Of a stretch of DNA of 64,000 nt, positions 24,629 to 38,471 are shown piece after piece. Source of the stretch: an uncultured Acidobacteriota bacterium. GTDB taxonomy: Bacteria; Acidobacteriota; Blastocatellia; RBC074. The notes under the pieces are model-generated. The model made no database searches and was not told the origin of the DNA. It saw only the letters and a list, made by a program, of their open reading frames with translations. The position numbers and the translations under genes are program-made. Location of the stretch: NCBI GenBank assembly GCA_963796275.1, contig CAWCKY010000001.1, positions 32,001-96,000 of the forward strand. The letters are read 5' to 3'. Numbering within the stretch: position 1 is the stretch's first letter; each line of letters starts with the position of its first letter.

Positions 24629-25699
24629 GATCCTTGCCGGCCAGGGAACAATCGCCGCCGGCGCACCAACAATCTGACCTCGATCTAACGTCGAGTGATG
24701 TCTCTTCCGGAAAACCCGTTGATGGTAAACAGTTCGCGGCACAATCTGACACCACGGAGTATAGCTTATATGTGTGCTTCCGCACAGATAGAATTCGGAG
24801 GCGGACGCCCGTGGCTATTGGCAATCCGGGCCGTGTCGGTGGCCGGCCTAAGTGAGATGCTGAGTAATCTCCTTACTAGGGGGAGGAGCTAGTCGCGTCA
24901 GTAGCAGCGCAATCTCGCCGAGCGGCAGGCAGTAATCCACATCTACGTTTTGCAGCACGCTGTACGGCATGGAGGAGGCAATCGCTTCCACCGGATCCTG
25001 CACGATGGCTATTCCCCCGCGATCCTTCACAGCTTGGAGCCCCGCCGTGCCGTCATATAGATACCCCGTTAGAACCACGCCCACGATGCGCGATCCATAA
25101 GCGTGAGCCGCCGAGCGGAATAATACGTTGATGGCTGGGCGGAAGCGGTTCTCCTTCGGGCCGCGCGTGACCCTGACAAGGCCGGGCTCAAGCAGTAGGT
25201 GGTAATCAGGCGGAGCCACATAAATATGCCCCGGCCTGAGCAGATCAAAATCTGCCGGAACAGAGGCTGGGAGCGGCCCAGCATCCATAAGTATCCGGGG
25301 CAATATGCACGGAGCAGTCGGACCGCAGTGTTGCACAAGGAGAACAGAAGCGGGAAACCCTGCGGGCAATCCGCTAACAATCACCCTCAACGCATCAATG
25401 CCTCCGTAAGAGGCTCCTATGACGATAATGTCCTTGTTCGCCATACGTACCACCTCTATCGAATAGGATTAAGATCACGAAACTCGATGGCGCAAGAATG
25501 ACAAAGTTGTATGGTCTAGTATATTGAAATTCTTGTTTGGCAACGAGCCCCCCAAATTCCCCACTGGTGTCCACCAGGCCCGTAGCCGGAGTGGGTTGGT
25601 GGAAACGGCCTAACTACTCATTTCACCAATAAATTAGATACCAGAGACGGTTCCAGAGCTAATCCGTCATATGTGCCTACGACGTCTTTATCGGGTGCA
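24629..25699. repeat. ~1.07-kb near-identical direct duplication (copy 1; copy 2 at 33133-34204)
   Basis: Sequences match almost base for base. Confidence 0.95.
24848..25453 (-). CDS. cheB: Stand-alone CheB-type methylesterase domain protein, copy 1
   Basis: IIVIGASYGG, VQH, YVAPPDYHL, FRPAINVLFRSAA, LTG..DGTAGL, SMP. Confidence 0.9.
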   Translation of the reverse strand: MVRMANKDIIVIGASYGGIDALRVIVSGLPAGFPASVLLVQHCGPTAPCILPRILMDAGPLPASVPADFDLLRPGHIYVAPPDYHLLLEPGLVRVTRGPKENRFRPAINVLFRSAAHAYGSRIVGVVLTGYLYDGTAGLQAVKDRGGIAIVQDPVEAIASSMPYSVLQNVDVDYCLPLGEIALLLTRLAPPPSKEITQHLT

Positions 25700-33118: not shown

Positions 33119-33318
33119 AAATAGCTTTCCTTGATCCTTGCCGGCCAAGGAACAATCGCCGCCGGCACACCAACAATCTGACCTCGATCTAACGTCGAGT
33201 GATGTCTCTTCCGGAAAACCCGTTGATGGTAAACAGTTCGCGGCACAATCTGACACCACGGAGTATAGCTTATATGTGTGCTTCCGCACAGATAGAATTC
33301 GGAGGCGGACGCCCGTGG

Positions 33319-33957
33319 CTATTGGCAATCCGGGCCGTGTCGGTGGCCGGCCTGAGTGAGATGCTGAGTAATCTCCTTACTAGGGGGAGGAGCTAGTCGC
33401 GTCAGTAGCAGCGCAATCTCGCCGAGCGGCAGGCAGTAATCCACATCTACGTTTTGCAGCACGCTGTACGGCATGGAGGAGGCAATCGCTTCCACCGGAT
33501 CCTGCACGATGGCTATTCCCCCGCGATCCTTCACAGCTTGGAGCCCCGCCGTGCCATCATATAGATACCCCGTTAGAACCACGCCCACGATGCGCGATCC
33601 ATAAGCGTGAGCCGCCGAGCGGAATAATACGTTGATGGCTGGGCGGAAGCGGTTCTCCTTCGGGCCGCGCGTGACCCTGACAAGGCCGGGCTCAAGCAGT
33701 AGGTGGTAATCAGGCGGAGCCACATAAATATGCCCCGGCCTGAGCAGATCAAAATCTGCCGGAACAGAGGCTGGGAGCAGCTCAGCATCCATAAGTATCT
33801 GGCGCAATATGCACGGAGCAGTCGGACCGCAGTGTTGCACAAGGAGAACAGAAGCGGGAAACCCTGCGGGCAATCCGCTAACAATCACCCTCAACGCATC
33901 AATGCCTCCGTAAGAGGCTCCTATGACGATAATGTCCTTGTTCGCCATACGTACCAC
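33319..33957 (-). CDS. cheB: CheB-type methylesterase domain protein, copy 2
   Basis: Near-identical to 24848-25453; the TAG of copy 1 is CAG here, giving 11 extra aa. Confidence 0.9.
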   Translation of the reverse strand: MVRMANKDIIVIGASYGGIDALRVIVSGLPAGFPASVLLVQHCGPTAPCILRQILMDAELLPASVPADFDLLRPGHIYVAPPDYHLLLEPGLVRVTRGPKENRFRPAINVLFRSAAHAYGSRIVGVVLTGYLYDGTAGLQAVKDRGGIAIVQDPVEAIASSMPYSVLQNVDVDYCLPLGEIALLLTRLAPPPSKEITQHLTQAGHRHGPDCQ

Positions 33958-34204
33958 CTCTATCGAATAGGATTAAGATCACGAAACTCGATGGCGCAAG
34001 AATGACAAAGTTGTATGGTCTAGTATATTGAAATTCTTGTTTGGCAACGAGCCCCCCCAATTCCCCACTGGTGTCCACCAGGCCCGTAGCCGGAGTGGTT
34101 GGTGGAAACGACCTAACTACTCATTTCACCAATAAAATTAGATACCAGAGACGGGTTCCAGAGCTAGTCCGTCATATGTGCCTACGATGTCTTTATCGGG
34201 TGCA

Positions 34205-34330
34205 TGAATGGCACAGGCTGGAGAACGCGCACGTCGAGGCGATCCGGACCAGGCTCGCTGAGTCGTTATCGCCGAACACGGCCAACAAGAAGCTTGCGGC
34301 CCTGCGCGGCGTGCTCAAGAAGGCAGACTT
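34205..34330 (+). pseudogene. Tyrosine integrase N-terminal (SAM-like) fragment
   Basis: HVEAIRTRLAESLSPNTANKKLAALRGVLK. Confidence 0.65.
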
Positions 34331-34766
34331 CATTACTGAGCCCGGCACCCGCGCCAAAAAGCGCTGAAAGTTTTACGCCAAATAATTCCGAAAGTGACAA
34401 AAAATAAGGTCGCCTCCCCCGCCTTTGTATGCCTGATAACGAAGAGGATTGTATCCGAAGTGCTCAGATCAGACCTCGGCTGTGACTGAGCAAACGGGTT
34501 CTGAGCATTTCGGATACAATCTGTTGAACTAAGCCGCGGCGTGGCTATGGGGTTTGTATGACGAAGAGGCGTAATCGAGAGGAATCGTAACGGCTCGGCG
34601 CCACCTCCGTTGGAAGACGAGTGCGTTGATTCCGCCTACGATCACATTCAGTGAGCCTGGTCTTGCGTGTTTGAAAGGCCGAACGAACACGCTTCTCCTT
34701 AATCGGCCAAGGGGCCATCATCTCAGCTTTGCTTCTACACGACTTGATTCTCCGCCCCATCTGGAC

Positions 34767-36023
34767 TCAGGAGGAATCCATCAGGAACGCCACGAACGTC
34801 TCCGCAGTGGCGTTGTCAGCCGAAGCTTGTATGGTTTCAATGATCATCATGCGGCCCTGCTGGCAAACCGGACAGCGGACTGATTCCGACATGACCGCCT
34901 GCTCATGATACGTCTGCCAGGTTCCCGGGCTGTCGGTCGAGAGGCCGCCATCTTGTTGTTCAATCAGTCGGCGGCACAACTCCAGATTCTCCTGCCGGGA
35001 GCGATGAGCCAGAAGGCCATAATAGCGGATTCTGACCAACCCTTTCGGGAGGATGTGGAGTAGAAAACGGCGCGTGAATTCACGAACATCAAGCGTCATC
35101 GTTTTGGTCGCGTTTCCGGCCGCATAGTCCTTGTAGCTGAATGTCACCCGGCCATCCGAGAGTTCCAGCAAACGATAATTAGAGATCGCCACCCGATGTG
35201 TGTAGCGCGCCAGATATTTTAAGACCTGTTCCGGTCCGCCGAAAGGCGGCTTCGCATAGACCACCCATTCCATCCCGCTCAATTCACGGAGCAGCTTTTC
35301 GAGACGACCTTTCTGCGTCAAATGGCTCAATTGCCCGGCACAGACCAGATTCCCATTCTGAAACTCTTGTCTGAGGCCAGCAATGAACTTGCGGCGAAAG
35401 AGCCGGCTCAGCACTTTCACCGGGAGAAAGAATCCTCGGCGACAAGCGATCCACCGGGAGTGATCCGGAGAGAGCCCGCCACCCGGCACAACGCAATGCA
35501 GATGCGGGTGGTGCTGCAAAGTCTGGCCCCAGGTATGGAGGACAGCGAGAAAACCAATTTCGGCGCCGAGATGACGCGGGTCCGCGGCGATCTCCAACAG
35601 CGTCTCGGAAGTGGCCTTGAAAAGTAGTCCGTAGAGTATTCGTTTGTTCTGCAGCGCTAACGTAGAGAGTTGCTCCGGCAGCGTGAATACAACATGGTAA
35701 TACTCACACAACAGAAGCTCCGCGGCACGTTCATCGAGCCAGGCGGCGCGCGCCGTAGCCTGACATTTTGGACAATGACGGTTCCTGCAGGAGTTGTATG
35801 CGATCTGATGATGGCCGCACTGGTCGCATTGCTCCAGATGCCCACCCAATGCAGCGGTGCGACATTGCATAATGTCGCGCAAGACCCGGCGCTGCACCGA
35901 AAAAAGGGGCAGCTCGTCGCGTTCCATTTGATCAAGGTCTATGCTCCTGAAGATGTCAGCCAGCTCCAGTCGCGGCTTATTCACAATCCCGGCTGGCAGC
36001 CTGCTGACTGAGCAGGTGGTCAA
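34767..36023 (-). CDS. IS91-family (HUH/Y2) transposase
   Basis: Zn finger CRTAALGG..CDQC..SCRNRHCPKC, HTWGQ..HPHLH (HUH), YLARYTHR (Y2). Confidence 0.95.
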   Translation of the reverse strand: MTTCSVSRLPAGIVNKPRLELADIFRSIDLDQMERDELPLFSVQRRVLRDIMQCRTAALGGHLEQCDQCGHHQIAYNSCRNRHCPKCQATARAAWLDERAAELLLCEYYHVVFTLPEQLSTLALQNKRILYGLLFKATSETLLEIAADPRHLGAEIGFLAVLHTWGQTLQHHPHLHCVVPGGGLSPDHSRWIACRRGFFLPVKVLSRLFRRKFIAGLRQEFQNGNLVCAGQLSHLTQKGRLEKLLRELSGMEWVVYAKPPFGGPEQVLKYLARYTHRVAISNYRLLELSDGRVTFSYKDYAAGNATKTMTLDVREFTRRFLLHILPKGLVRIRYYGLLAHRSRQENLELCRRLIEQQDGGLSTDSPGTWQTYHEQAVMSESVRCPVCQQGRMMIIETIQASADNATAETFVAFLMDSS

Positions 36024-36840
36024 GTGGACTGGCGGTGGAGCTCAACGCCAGTGTAGAGACGTGTACGTAAAGGGCGGTCGTCTTCAGACTGCGATGGCCA
36101 AGCAGCAATTGAATGGTGCGCAGGTCGGTACCGGTCTCCAGCAAATGAGTTGCAAACGAATGACGAAGCACATGTGGCGTGACGGTCTTTGTCAGGCGGG
36201 CTGTTTCACCGGCCTGCCGACAGATGCGATAAATGGTCGTGGTATTAATTGGGCGGTTTGGATCCTCTCCAGGAAAGAGCCACTGAGCCGGCCGGTACGC
36301 CTGCCAGAATTGGCGCAGCAAATCCAGCAGATGTGGCGAGAGCATGACCAAACGATCTTTGCGCCCCTTGCCATGACGAACAACGATGAGTCGCCGCTGG
36401 CTATCGATGTCTGTATTGCGCAAGGCTGCCACCTCCGAGACGCGCAACCCCGCGGCATAAGTGGTAGTGAGAATGGCACGGTGTTTAAGGTTATTGGTGG
36501 CTTGTAGAAGCGCTGTCACTTCGGCCTGGCTCAAGACGAGGGGGAGCCGTTTCTCGTGCCTGGGATAAGGAATCTGATCGATCATCTCCTGTCTGCCGAG
36601 AGTCACGTTATAAAAGAAGCGAAGAGCGCAGACGGTCTGGTTGAACAAGGCCCACGAAGCCTTCTTTTGCCGAACCAGATGGAGTTGGTATTCGCGGACG
36701 TGAGCCGGGCCAAGCTGATCTGGGGACCGCCTAAAGTGTTTGGCGAAATCGGCCACGCAACGAAGATAGACCCTGATCGTATTGGGCGAGTAATTCCGCA
36801 GCTCTAAATCAGCGGCCATCCTTTGACGCAAATCGGTCAT
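35977..36840 (-). CDS. Tyrosine recombinase/integrase
   Basis: YAAGLRVSE, GKGRKDR, HVLRHSFATHL, LLGH..TTALY. Confidence 0.95.
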   Translation of the reverse strand: MTDLRQRMAADLELRNYSPNTIRVYLRCVADFAKHFRRSPDQLGPAHVREYQLHLVRQKKASWALFNQTVCALRFFYNVTLGRQEMIDQIPYPRHEKRLPLVLSQAEVTALLQATNNLKHRAILTTTYAAGLRVSEVAALRNTDIDSQRRLIVVRHGKGRKDRLVMLSPHLLDLLRQFWQAYRPAQWLFPGEDPNRPINTTTIYRICRQAGETARLTKTVTPHVLRHSFATHLLETGTDLRTIQLLLGHRSLKTTALYVHVSTLALSSTASPLDHLLSQQAASRDCE

Positions 36841-36990
36841 ACAGAGACTCCTTTCACGACTGAAATAAAATGAGATACAAAACGAAAAGCCCTGCAGAAG
36901 CTATTTCAGCAGTGGCGATAAAAGGATAGGGCTCTGTTAGGAGATAAAGGAAGAACTGAGTGTGCGATGGACGATTGAACTGAACGGAGG

Positions 36991-37455
36991 TTAGGTTTTT
37001 AGTATGACCTGCGTCCCGTCGGGTAGGTCTCTGATCTGCTGGTGAATTGACGCATATACGCCGTAATGTTCTGTGACGCTCAAGATTGCCGTATTCTCCA
37101 CCGTGTATCCCCCACCAAGTATCGGCGGAATGATAAAGCTGTAGCACTGGCCCGCGTATAGTATCTTGCCGGCCTTTACCAAACTATCCACGAGAGGAAT
37201 CATGAGCCAATCGGAAGCATTATCATCTTCATCAATCTTGCGACTGAATTCATCCCTGTTTTCTGCCAATTGTTCTATGGTTCCACGACCAATCTCGATC
37301 ATGTGGACAGTACCGTCATTAAAAACCAGAAAGAGATCGCCATATCGGTTTATTAGCCAAACAGTAAACTCTTCGGGCAATAGCCAAGCCCAATCGGCTA
37401 GCAGAGTTGGCCAATCAAAATCATTATGATCAATTATGTAGTCGGTGATCATCAT
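36991..37455 (-). CDS. Tdi1/DUF1851-like toxin immunity protein (orphan)
   Basis: W.WLL..NRYGDLF and GQCYSFIIPPILGG.YTVEN motifs. Confidence 0.75.
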   Translation of the reverse strand: MMITDYIIDHNDFDWPTLLADWAWLLPEEFTVWLINRYGDLFLVFNDGTVHMIEIGRGTIEQLAENRDEFSRKIDEDDNASDWLMIPLVDSLVKAGKILYAGQCYSFIIPPILGGGYTVENTAILSVTEHYGVYASIHQQIRDLPDGTQVILKT

Positions 37456-37895
37456 TCTCCCTTACCCTGATGGGAGCCGAAAGCGTTAATGCACTGATAC
37501 CCCATGCATGTCGGATAATCCAGTAAGGACTACCGCGTATGATAATTTGGCATTGCTGAAACTTCCATGCTTTTTCACGGTTGGTCTCTTCTATGTGATA
37601 CTCAGTGCCGCTCAATCCTTTCCCGACAGGTGTGATGTCTCCTTTGGGAGCCAGAGTTGCTGTAGTGATATAAATCAAAGCCACGTCCCAGAAGGGGACC
37701 CAGTTCAGCCGAAAATAGATTGAGCGAATGGGTACAAAGAAGCCCGGCAAGCAGAAAGTGAAGACTACCGCGAAGCGGTTTAGTTCAACAGATTTTATCT
37801 GGCATAAGAGAAGGGGTCGAGGTATAAACCGCGAGGGAGATGAGCCCGATCCGATGGAGCGAGGTCGATCTTGTTAACGGGCACAATAATATTGA

Positions 37896-38471
37896 ATGAC
37901 TTATCACACATCGACACTCTATTGCTTTGTTGACGAGACCGGTCAAGAGACAGAGGGACGATTTTTCCTGGTTTCAGTGGTGATCGCTGATCAGGAATAT
38001 GGACAGATGGCCATGGCGCTGGAGGAAATAGAGCACGCTTCTAAGAAGAGCATTGGTAAATGGCGCAAGACAACCTTTGAAATCAGAATCGCATACCTGG
38101 AAGCAGTCCTAAAAAACCCTCTCTTCGTTGACACTATCTATTTCGCCCAGTACGCCGGCTCTCAAGACTACTTAGATCTGACAGTCCAGACGACAGCCAA
38201 TGCAATTCGTTGCAGAACAGTCTCTGATGACTACATTGCCACCATTACGGTCGATGGATTGAAAGGCAAAGAAGTCGATAAGTTCAAGAGGCGTTTAAGA
38301 ATGTTGAATATCAGTGTCCGGAAAGTCAGGGGCGCACGGGACGAAAGCGATCCAATGATCAGGCTCGCTGACGCCTTTGCCGGTTTTATTCGTGACTACC
38401 TGGAAGGTCAAACCTACGCTCAGCAGATGTTTGAGAGAGCGGTCAACGCGGGTGTAGTGCGGGAGTTATAA
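37896..38471 (+). CDS. DUF3800 family protein (RNase H-like acidic motifs)
   Basis: YCFVDETG at the N-terminus; IRLADAFAG at the C-terminus. Confidence 0.85.
   Translation: MTYHTSTLYCFVDETGQETEGRFFLVSVVIADQEYGQMAMALEEIEHASKKSIGKWRKTTFEIRIAYLEAVLKNPLFVDTIYFAQYAGSQDYLDLTVQTTANAIRCRTVSDDYIATITVDGLKGKEVDKFKRRLRMLNISVRKVRGARDESDPMIRLADAFAGFIRDYLEGQTYAQQMFERAVNAGVVREL

Follow-up and report, generated by a model that had tools for sequence, protein, structure and literature searches.

Insertion sequences of the IS91 family, together with their ISCR relatives, move virulence and resistance genes. According to one source on the family (PMC13181058), only four members have been shown to transpose, and IS91 inserts only single-stranded circles of the bottom strand. 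According to another (bioRxiv 10.1101/542381), the recombinases found in IS91 elements form an integron-like subgroup that lacks the IntI insertion. The window analyzed here is a 64,000-nt stretch of DNA from an uncultured soil bacterium of the Acidobacteriota, in which we delimited a 3.3-kb element at positions 34440-37788 (± 2 nt). All of its genes lie on the minus strand and comprise an integrase, an IS91-family HUH transposase and two passenger open reading frames (ORFs). The two-gene architecture is already catalogued; ISfinder has IS91-family entries with an extra tyrosine recombinase ORF, such as ISWz1. A sequence-only reading of the same DNA had held the mechanism to be poorly described, and the searchable papers, which do not include the ISfinder and TnPedia texts, yielded no published account of the ends, target or mechanism of this integrase-bearing IS91 branch. 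We offer a testable model that defines the ends exactly and includes a dyad target that empty sites confirm, a fold specific to one strand and a predicted circle joint.

Gene content, relatives and ends of the element

The features of the element and its flanks are listed below. The "bottom" strand is the strand antisense to the transposase gene (tnp), which is the plus strand of the window.

34428-34439, plus strand: left half of the target palindrome, TATGCCTGATAA; flank, not element
34440-34446, plus strand: 7-nt linker CGAAGAG, the ori-side terminus of the element (border ± 2 nt)
34447-34521, plus strand: conserved subterminal hairpin, stems 34447-34468 and 34500-34521, variable loop
34518-34523, plus strand: internal spacer AATCTG, separating the repeat core from the hairpin arm GATAC
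34524-34544, plus strand: ori-side inverted repeat, downstream of tnp, with core TTGAACTAAGCCGC at 34524-34537
34545-34556, plus strand: conserved motif CTATGGGGTTTG (CAAACCCCATAG on the tnp strand), candidate HUH-enzyme site
34767-36023, minus strand: tnp, IS91-family HUH Y2 transposase, 418-aa ORF from a TTG start
35977-36840, minus strand: int, Xer/IntI-like tyrosine recombinase (Int), 287 aa, directly upstream of tnp on the same strand
36991-37455, minus strand: passenger gene, Tdi1-like T6SS immunity protein, 154 aa (T6SS_Tdi1_C, 1.1e-17)
37430-37750, minus strand: passenger ORF, 106 aa, no recognized family
37768-37788, plus strand: ter-side inverted repeat, upstream of int, with core GCGGTTTAGTTCAA at 37775-37788; element terminus (± 2 nt)
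37789-37794, plus strand: target spacer CAGATT; flank
37795-37806, plus strand: right half of the target palindrome, TTATCTGGCATA; flank

The features from which the sequence-only reading had started were all present when the DNA was read again, and its description of an integrase and an IS91-type HUH transposase between inverted ends was confirmed by domain searches and repeat analysis. Tnp, the likely start of which is the ATG at 35927, carries the Pfam domains Y2_Tnp (2.7e-67) and Zn_Tnp_IS91 (4e-30), scores 450 bits against the NF033538 equivalog (cut-off 125) and has the motifs HPHLH and YLARY, recognized by eye. Int carries Phage_integrase (2.1e-39) and SAM_4 (7.6e-20) domains and scores 225.5 bits against NF040815 (cut-off 220). 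Its score against the integron integrase model TIGR02249 is 190.9, below the 265 of that model, and falls in two stretches with the middle missing; against NF011946 it scores 138 (cut-off 435). Judged from its sequence, Int appears to be devoid of the IntI-specific extra helices and to fall short of a full-length integron integrase. The nearest solved structures are XerA, IntI4 and XerD, and the catalytic R, HxxRH and Y residues are all present by alignment and sequence. Downstream, int is adjoined by tnp and not by cassettes.

The two passenger ORFs (36991-37750) had been missed in the sequence-only reading. The Tdi1-like gene sits between the ter-side repeat and int, an interval that measures only 79-250 nt in 62 of 65 relatives; the window copy shows that passenger genes, in this case an orphan T6SS immunity gene, can travel on such elements. 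The 106-aa ORF, which had no Pfam or NCBIfam match and no usable Atlas match, may not be a gene. An extra 1.1 kb in one relative (L079) was considered as cargo and rejected, being a nested DDE_3 insertion sequence.

We confirmed 247 relatives and kept the best 80. A full-length int ends less than 300 nt upstream of tnp in 69 of these 80 loci. Of 70 elements, 65 have the 14-nt repeat core upstream of int and 65 have it downstream of tnp. These counts overstate independence because related loci share ancestry. Throughout the group tnp is intact and kept together with int. The Int-Tnp pair, the repeat core and the hairpin downstream of tnp are conserved across the group. Its distribution is wide, with relatives in Acidobacteriota, Bradyrhizobium, Verrucomicrobia and planctomycete metagenome-assembled genomes, and a homologue of Int is found in 473 plasmid records. 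The plasmid annotation of a Sinorhizobium relative names the integrase only, and that annotation table is incomplete. One genome (G111) holds nine identical copies at different genomic places. The window copy is single in its genome, where searches by DNA, by protein and by the 20-nt end pattern returned no further copies.

The terminal inverted repeat arms (34513-34544 and 37768-37799) span 32 nt and are 84% complementary; within them, AATCTGTTGAACTAA(G/A)CCGC occurs at 34518-34537 and, inverted, at 37775-37794. The absence of terminal inverted repeats that is typical of classic IS91 members is therefore not found here. Following ISfinder practice, the family is defined by its transposase, and repeat-free ends are merely typical of its classic members. 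On the ter side, a 36-nt stretch at the repeat is 97% identical to the same end of the closest relative (L034), and copies within one genome start at this place. On the ori side, the linker pattern NNNAGAG is kept at the matching place in relatives, and conservation between elements ends just outside it. The core CCCATAG of the CTATGGGGTTTG motif is kept in all eight aligned relatives. The internal spacer matches the complement of the target spacer (37789-37794) at every position, and relatives have the same layout. That the element belongs to the integrase-bearing branch of the IS91 family, with the anatomy given here, we regard as nearly certain.

The subterminal hairpin and the target site

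The hairpin has 22-nt stems that are 95% complementary and a 31-nt loop. In relatives a covarying hairpin lies 230-340 nt downstream of tnp, and about 125 nt downstream of tnp, with the hairpin within them, could be aligned in seven relatives. As the repeat core recurs across the group and the hairpin covaries, neither feature can be attributed to chance. On the bottom strand the alignment supports 21 pairs, nine of them compensatory, with 11 G·U cells, two broken cells and a folding energy of -37.8 kcal/mol, compared with 19 pairs, no G·U cells, seven broken cells (six A·C) and -28.4 kcal/mol on the top strand. A role for the hairpin as a tnp terminator was rejected because the wobble pairs lie on the opposite strand.

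The terminal repeats are biased in the same direction. Of the transition differences between the repeat cores, 26 give a wobble pair on the bottom strand and none does so on the top strand; they fall at seven positions, alongside nine transversions. This comparison covers 43 usable of 46 distinct pairs; two empty rows and a mis-extracted row (L079) were dropped, the latter being the sole case of wobble in the opposite direction. Nearly every mismatch within the hairpin or between the terminal repeats is a G·T on the strand antisense to tnp, and hairpin and repeats are built to pair on this bottom strand. Of 57 distinct ends, 55 have the more stable fold on the bottom strand in the 125 nt beyond the repeat. 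Control windows taken from coding regions lean the same way, with a more stable bottom strand in 188 of 280 (the top strand in 88) and a mean difference of -1.83 kcal/mol as against -4.19 kcal/mol at the element end; base composition explains some of the fold bias. C-to-T damage could also add to the 26-to-0 bias without pairing, given a strand that is frequently in single-stranded form. The wobble and fold biases are indirect pointers to a possible bottom-strand single-stranded circular intermediate.

Empty sites were available for one relative, the closest. Where L034 carries its element, two genomes (G027 and G035) read AAGATAA-AATCTG-TTATCTT, with no hairpin and no duplication, and these orthologous sites contain the equivalent of the left arm at the window copy and the same spacer as at that copy. 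The target is a short dyad, xATAA-N6-TTATx, and insertion occurs at one arm/spacer border without target duplication. In agreement, of 17 distinct junctions, 14 have ATAA (at most one mismatch) at a distance of exactly 6 nt from the repeat core, compared with 0-3 at each of the 13 other offsets, and TTAT (at most one mismatch) abuts the other element end in all 17. The spacer and this arm vary among identical copies of one genome, from which it follows that both derive from the target. The arm-6-arm layout that the sequence-only reading had noticed at the window junctions was borne out. In the window itself, TATGCCTGATAA and TTATCTGGCATA form an inverted match at 11 of 12 positions and the junctions show no direct repeat; the arms show no significant locus-specific symmetry in their outer 7 nt (p about 0.2). 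No joined match to the flanks of the window copy was obtained among 87 genomes of the family, and no usable empty sites were obtained for three further relatives (L075, L032 and L092), the flank matches of which were too distant or abutted other repeats. The target look-alike GCCNGATAA-N3-8-TTATCNGGC had no matches genome-wide in the genome of the window. Flank palindromes of the form TTATGCCG-N-CGGCATAA were considered as a genome-wide repeat and rejected, as they number one or two per genome and all lie beside element copies.

These data bear on where the element ends. The sequence-only reading had placed the hairpin-side border at 34522, so that the element would run only from repeat to repeat (34522-37794) and would have been inserted at the foot of a pre-existing, attC-like host hairpin; indeed, in the window alone, deletion of 34522-37794 leaves a long imperfect palindrome. 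In the relatives of other genomes, however, the hairpin lies beside tnp with compensatory changes, the copies of one genome share it and diverge only beyond it, its sequence occurs once in the genome of the window, and the two empty sites of L034 have none. We consider a host origin of the hairpin extremely improbable. That reading had itself named a hairpin that travels with the element as evidence against it, and this is what was found; the true border lies at about 34440. It is the element that folds, and the target is a short palindrome of the double-strand type.

A model of movement and its rivals

A folded element and a short palindromic target suggest movement as folded single-stranded DNA, which the sequence-only reading had also invoked and which is the best-supported substrate. 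We lean modestly toward a model in which a single-stranded circle is produced by the HUH enzyme and, once folded, is inserted by the Xer/IntI-like integrase through a single strand exchange; the division of labor between the two enzymes is its uncertain part. The HUH transposase would release a circle of single-stranded bottom-strand DNA, much as has been reported for IS91. In the circle, the two repeats would pair with each other and stack on the hairpin to give one long duplex, which would read GATAC (arm), AATCTG (spacer) and TTGAACTAA (arm), would have a 5-nt bulge next to the joint and so would copy the arm-6-arm layout of the target. The integrase, bound to the folded site and the dyad target, would then exchange one strand; the target would be cut after ...GATAA and the circle after ...TTAGTTCAA. 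Replication would turn the inserted strand into duplex, as in the integration of integron cassettes and CTX phage.

Since the hairpin is not the target, the circle joint predicted in the sequence-only reading, TTAGTTCAA-N6-TTGAACTAA, gives way to TTAGTTCAA followed by the 7-nt linker, the hairpin, the spacer and TTGAACTAA. On the bottom strand the predicted joint folds at -42.9 kcal/mol (z -9.4) into one hairpin with a GAAGA bulge (top strand, -35.9 kcal/mol) and mimics the target as GATAC-AATCTG-TTGAAC. Three of the four arms are TTATC-like and the TTGAAC arm is unlike them; it is not obvious that a single integrase species would bind both. Whether the repeats and hairpin of the circle imitate an Xer/dif-type core that the nearest relatives of integron integrases insert into short dif-like dyads, with head-to-tail arrays as a possible outcome, we judge to be evenly balanced. 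One genome (G003) has a head-to-tail joint of the predicted kind (GTTCAA, then linker) at two loci. Public reads yielded one soil-metagenome run (0.10 word share) with three short contigs identical to the window, one of which spans the right junction in the occupied state, and no joints or circles; this run may be the source sample and so is not independent support.

In the main rival model, the HUH enzyme inserts the element unaided, in a classic IS91-type or IS608-like manner, with Int in an accessory role (for example target capture, multimer or tandem resolution, or regulation). Here the enzyme, with the hairpin as its recognition element, would make two bottom-strand cuts, xAT^AA at the ori end and GTNC^AA at the ter end, and would circularize the strand and insert it 3' of an xAT site. 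The junctions can be read in this way. The ter end is GTTC, GTCC, GTGC or GTAC followed by AA, depending on the subgroup, and these are tetranucleotides used by IS91-family enzymes according to PMC13181058, which also describes IS91 TnpA as inserting single-stranded circles by itself and subterminal palindromes at oriIS as normal for the family. The crossover point is ambiguous by 2 nt because both partners carry AA. Placed ahead of AA, the cut would follow GTTC, the tetranucleotide at which IS801/IS1294 are classically cleaved. Such a cut would explain without mutation why L034 reads GATAG where the empty sites read GATAA, which favors HUH chemistry. G003 also holds a 105-nt miniature unit that resembles a deletion or a premature stop at a GTTC just inside the repeat. 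The ori flank, however, is (C/G)AT(AA) and neither GTNC nor CTTG, and the second target arm, set at exactly 6 nt, has no role in a tetranucleotide model. The conserved terminal repeats with their bottom-strand wobble bias and the strict linkage of the integrase (69 of 80 loci) would likewise be left unexplained. Insertion by the HUH enzyme alone is a real but rather unlikely possibility.

Alternatively, the integrase could carry out excision as well as integration, in the manner of a tyrosine transposon or IMEX, with the HUH protein only replicating or amplifying the circle or persisting as a co-travelling relic. In the integrated bottom strand, flank arms, repeats with spacer, and hairpin could adopt a three-way fold, the reverse substrate for the insertion proposed above, and the catalytic residues of Int are in place. 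Nevertheless, we hold this to be improbable: the group as a whole keeps an intact tnp together with int, the ter end fits HUH tetranucleotides, and double-strand recombination of the junction sites would leave a CTCTTCG linker scar that the empty sites do not have.

If insertion of an HUH-generated circle by the integrase is correct, integron-type single-strand recombination would extend beyond integrons and phages. Rolling-circle insertion sequences would be linked mechanistically, and perhaps evolutionarily, to attC cassettes and Xer-exploiting phages, and the element would hint at a possible origin of attC-like folded sites.

Comparison with known systems

The element resembles IS91, IS801 and IS1294 in its HUH Y2 transposase with an N-terminal zinc domain, its ori-type end with a subterminal palindrome downstream of tnp, its upstream ter-type end finishing in GTNC, the lack of target duplication and the implication of the bottom strand as the mover. 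It differs from them in adding a linked tyrosine recombinase and conserved terminal inverted repeats of 14-32 nt, in an ori flank that is not GTTC or CTTG, and in a target that is a dyad with a 6-nt spacer. Its two-gene architecture is that of the ISWz1-type entries and of the "integron-like" subgroup of Smyshlyaev et al., with which it shares a simple Xer/IntI-like recombinase without the IntI-specific insertion; unlike these, the window copy has passenger ORFs.

With integrons, in which IntI acts on the folded bottom strand of attC, the element shares a related recombinase, strand-specific folding, a folded single strand with unpaired bases as the proposed substrate and, probably, one strand exchange finished by replication. 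Integrons have the IntI insertion, attI, Pc and a cassette array, none of which was noticed at the element, whereas the element would make its own single strand via the HUH enzyme and use a short palindrome as the partner site. IS200/IS605 elements such as IS608 likewise undergo HUH single-strand transposition guided by subterminal hairpins, with cleavage sites that differ between the two ends, but their enzyme is Y1 rather than Y2 and they have no integrase, terminal inverted repeats or dyad target.

CTX phage and IMEX parallel the proposed fold, in that a single-stranded genome folds into a forked hairpin mimicking an arm-6-arm site and tandem head-to-tail arrays are possible. The target of the element resembles the inner ATAA...TTAT part of dif sites. 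The element is not a phage and encodes its own recombinase; it falls outside the definition of an IMEX (a single dif, host XerCD and no recombinase of its own) and, as the nine copies in G111 illustrate, uses many sites per genome instead of one dif.

Organization of the element and its relatives

The features described by the sequence-only reading (an inverted repeat, a hairpin, an outer match and a motif) are all present in the window, and four ORFs, all on the minus strand, lie between the repeats.

Features of the integrase-bearing IS91-type element (window positions)
34428-34439 versus 37795-37806: outer match, 11/12
34447-34468 with 34500-34521: hairpin stem, 22 nt, 95% complementary
34513-34544 and 37768-37799: inverted repeat arms, 32 nt, 84% complementary
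34545-34556: motif CTATGGGGTTTG
34767-36023, minus: IS91-family HUH Y2 transposase (tnp); NF033538, 450 bits, cut-off 125
35977-36840, minus: tyrosine recombinase (int)
36991-37455, minus: Tdi1-like T6SS immunity protein; T6SS_Tdi1_C, 1.1e-17
37430-37750, minus: 106-aa ORF without recognisable family

Read by eye, the transposase carries HPHLH and YLARY motifs. At the inner edge of the passenger region, TTGAACTGAAC (36975-36985) matches the repeat core at 9 of 11 positions, adjoins the stop of the Tdi1-like gene and is oriented as the repeat on the ori side (downstream of tnp); it could reflect chance or be a trace of passenger capture.

The 9.46-Mb genome of the window contains a single copy of the element. 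When one genome per species was scanned, 247 relatives were confirmed, of which the best 80 were analysed; their hosts are Acidobacteriota, Bradyrhizobium and other Alphaproteobacteria, Verrucomicrobia and planctomycete MAGs, and none of the conclusions depends on G004 and G154, two unpublished genomes. Of these best 80 loci, 69 have a full-length int whose end is under 300 nt upstream of tnp, contig ends cutting some of the remaining 11. Upstream of int, 65 of 70 elements carry a 14-nt core like TTGAACTAAACCGC (79-250 nt from int in 62 of the 65), and the same core occurs inverted downstream of tnp in 65/70; these counts exaggerate independence because the loci share kinship. The repeat-to-int gap in the window is an outlier at 949 nt and is occupied by the passenger ORFs. 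Two relatives are also outliers: L079, in which a nested insertion sequence (L079 2949-4055; DDE_3 transposase domain, 3.5e-22) lies between repeat and int, and L040, with 419 nt.

The hairpin and the target site

Comparison with relatives assigns the hairpin to the element. In 7 relatives from other genomes, BLAST and alignment show conservation over about 125 nt downstream of tnp, in the order motif, repeat, 2 nt, hairpin and 7-nt linker ending AGAG, and likeness ends directly past the linker and the next TTAT. The stem covaries, with 9 predicted pairs altered on both sides, and the loop is variable. In genome G111, which holds a family of nine identical copies, 7 loci share the hairpin and diverge only outside it. 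For L034, the full-length relative nearest to the window element, orthologous empty sites exist in two further species of its genus; these read ...AAGATAA-AATCTG-TTATCTT..., without the hairpin, and the occupied site reads AAGATAAAATCTG/TTGAAC...element...CTCTTTGC/TATCTT (slashes mark junctions). The sequence-only reading had placed the insertion at the foot of a pre-existing attC-like hairpin in the host; since the hairpin travels with the element, being conserved and covarying in relatives and missing from the L034 empty sites, an outcome that the reading itself had named as refuting, that model is now scarcely credible.

The empty sites form a short dyad of two 7-nt arms around a 6-nt spacer, and comparison of empty with occupied sites places the L034 element at one arm/spacer border, without duplication. 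The window junctions follow this layout with near-identical sequence, TATGCCAGATAA-AATCTG-element-TTATCAGGCATA on the tnp strand. Of 17 distinct junction pairs of the window's subfamily, 14 have ATAA (at most one mismatch; 8 exact) at precisely 6 nt outward from the repeat core, against 0-3 of 17 at 13 other offsets tested, and TTAT (at most one mismatch) adjoins the other end in all 17 (12 exact). The spacer and this arm vary among otherwise identical G111 copies, so both derive from the target. Symmetry beyond the inner arms is high in the window and in L032 (11/12 each) and is not significant overall (p ~0.2). The crossover point can be placed only to within 2 nt, since both partners carry AA; the first base past AA is identical in target and element at 11 of 17 junctions, as read by eye from the listing. 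A comparison of the window flanks with 87 genomes of the family yielded no empty site for the window copy itself.

Several observations concern the flanks. To the left of the element, a 1.07-kb segment (33133-34204) is duplicated 8.5 kb upstream (24629-25699; 98.6% identity), with more partial copies elsewhere in the genome; within it lie a CheB-methylesterase-like gene and the beginning of ORF 34041-34367. This 108-aa ORF (plus strand) has a sub-threshold match to Phage_int_SAM_2, an integrase N-terminal SAM-like domain (E 0.0037), and may be what is left of another recombinase gene next to the insertion site. The 50 nt just left of the target (34350-34399) are 94% identical to a stretch of genome G090, the only one in which the surrounding context was compared and where it differs, and 80-82% identical in G010 and G082; they could mark where another repeat or mobile element ends. 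A DUF3800 protein gene (37896-38471, plus; weak match, 8.2e-05) lies directly right of the target. In by-eye translation only, the flanks of two G111 copies resemble the C-terminal box of tyrosine recombinase genes. At many loci, among them L038, L059, L091, L040, L071, L073, L131 and L132, a palindrome, TTATGCCG-N4-CGGCATAA, comes after the element, and before it stand one or two direct motifs resembling CGGCATAA. These genomes have just 1-2 such palindromes each, none of them away from the element, and the variants co-vary per locus (CGGCATAG three times in L071). An alphaproteobacterial GGATTGAACGAAGCC subgroup (L048-L051, L063, L065, L072, L083, L098) has the 3' end ...CAAGATTCC and a few recurring flank classes, e.g. 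...GAATCGAT-TTGGGA/, ...TGACTC.C.../ and GCAGAT.../; its sequences hint at a different target motif (GGAATC or GATTCC, perhaps).

Strand bias, the predicted circle joint and insertion

The hairpin alignment has 0 G·U cells and 7 broken cells (6 being A·C) on the top strand versus 11 G·U and 2 broken cells on the bottom strand, which is antisense to tnp and corresponds to the plus strand of the window, and the consensus energies are -28.4 and -37.8 kcal/mol, respectively. In the repeat cores, transition differences giving bottom-strand G·T number 26 versus 0 in the opposite direction, at 7 positions and beside 9 transversions, among 43 usable of 46 distinct pairs; two empty rows and a mis-extracted L079 row, the sole opposite-direction case, were dropped. 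Over the 125 nt past the repeat, the bottom strand is more stable in 55 of 57 distinct ends (means -29.35 vs -25.16 kcal/mol), a bias that is partly compositional, since in coding windows taken from these loci the bottom strand is likewise favoured, though less (188 vs 88 of 280 windows; mean difference -1.83). Damage to an often single-stranded strand could add to the wobble bias, and the structural mismatches all single out the bottom strand, whether by pairing or by damage. A role of the hairpin as tnp terminator is ruled out by the bottom-strand wobble bias. It is the bottom strand that IS91 is reported to insert as a single-stranded circle (PMC13181058).

A circle joint was built by joining both ends by coordinates on the bottom strand and was then folded. 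It is predicted to form one long hairpin (-42.9 kcal/mol, z -9.4; top strand -35.9) with paired repeats, a 5-nt bulge GAAGA one base from the joint, and then the subterminal hairpin. Along its unbroken strand this duplex has the sequence GATAC-AATCTG-TTGAACTAA, which would form an arm-6-arm site, its left arm and spacer being a copy of the target GATAA-AATCTG. Cuts after GATAA in the target and TTAGTTCAA in the circle, with the ends swapped, would give exactly both window junctions. The one public run found gave three contigs, identical to the window, and no circle joints.

A full element (L030) is present in genome G003, together with two contigs that differ in their flanks (CATAA/ and ACAA/) and end alike, each bearing a 105-nt unit, at the end of G003:C119 (L166 about 2510-2646) and the start of G003:C128 (L172 1-140). 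The unit consists only of linker, hairpin, spacer, TTGAAC, 8 nt and GTTCAA, and a second linker and hairpin follow directly, head-to-tail. The step from GTTCAA into the linker is the joint that a circle or tandem is predicted to have; the right junction is still arm-spacer-arm, so tandems would be expected if it remains a target. These units resemble MITE-like derivatives or tandem arrays; each contig breaks off within the repeat, and an assembly effect may be involved.

We propose, with somewhat better than even confidence, that the HUH enzyme would make a single-stranded circle, the integrase would insert the folded circle via one strand exchange, and replication would complete that exchange. 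The main rival, insertion by the HUH enzyme alone, would account for a ter end (upstream of int) finishing in the IS91-family tetranucleotides GTTC, GTCC, GTGC or GTAC, for the GATAG of L034, which requires no mutation if the cut falls before AA, and for the G003 miniature units, which resemble a stop or deletion at a GTTC. However, GTNC is never found as the ori flank, the second target arm stands at a fixed distance, and the conserved wobble-biased repeats and linked integrase would have no role. We regard this rival as rather unlikely; a model with the integrase only is considerably less probable still.

The integrase and known systems

ISfinder has entries that combine an integrase with IS91, e.g. 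ISWz1. One paper supports the membership of ISWz1 in the IS91 family and only that. Searches of paper texts turned up none that describes how integrase-bearing IS91 elements move, or their ends or target; an earlier description may exist in ISfinder, in TnPedia or in supplements.

The window integrase is a simple Xer/IntI-like enzyme. It scores 225.5 bits against NF040815 (XerA / integron integrase; cut-off 220) and 190.9 against the integron-integrase model TIGR02249, under the cut-off of 265; the latter match falls in two stretches, with the IntI-specific middle absent. Among solved structures, archaeal XerA, IntI4 and XerD come nearest. According to bioRxiv 10.1101/542381, the integron-like subgroup includes recombinases of IS91 and IS3 transposons, which are without the IntI insertion. 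The missing middle of the window integrase agrees with that description, and the architecture of an integrase joined to IS91 has thus already been catalogued.
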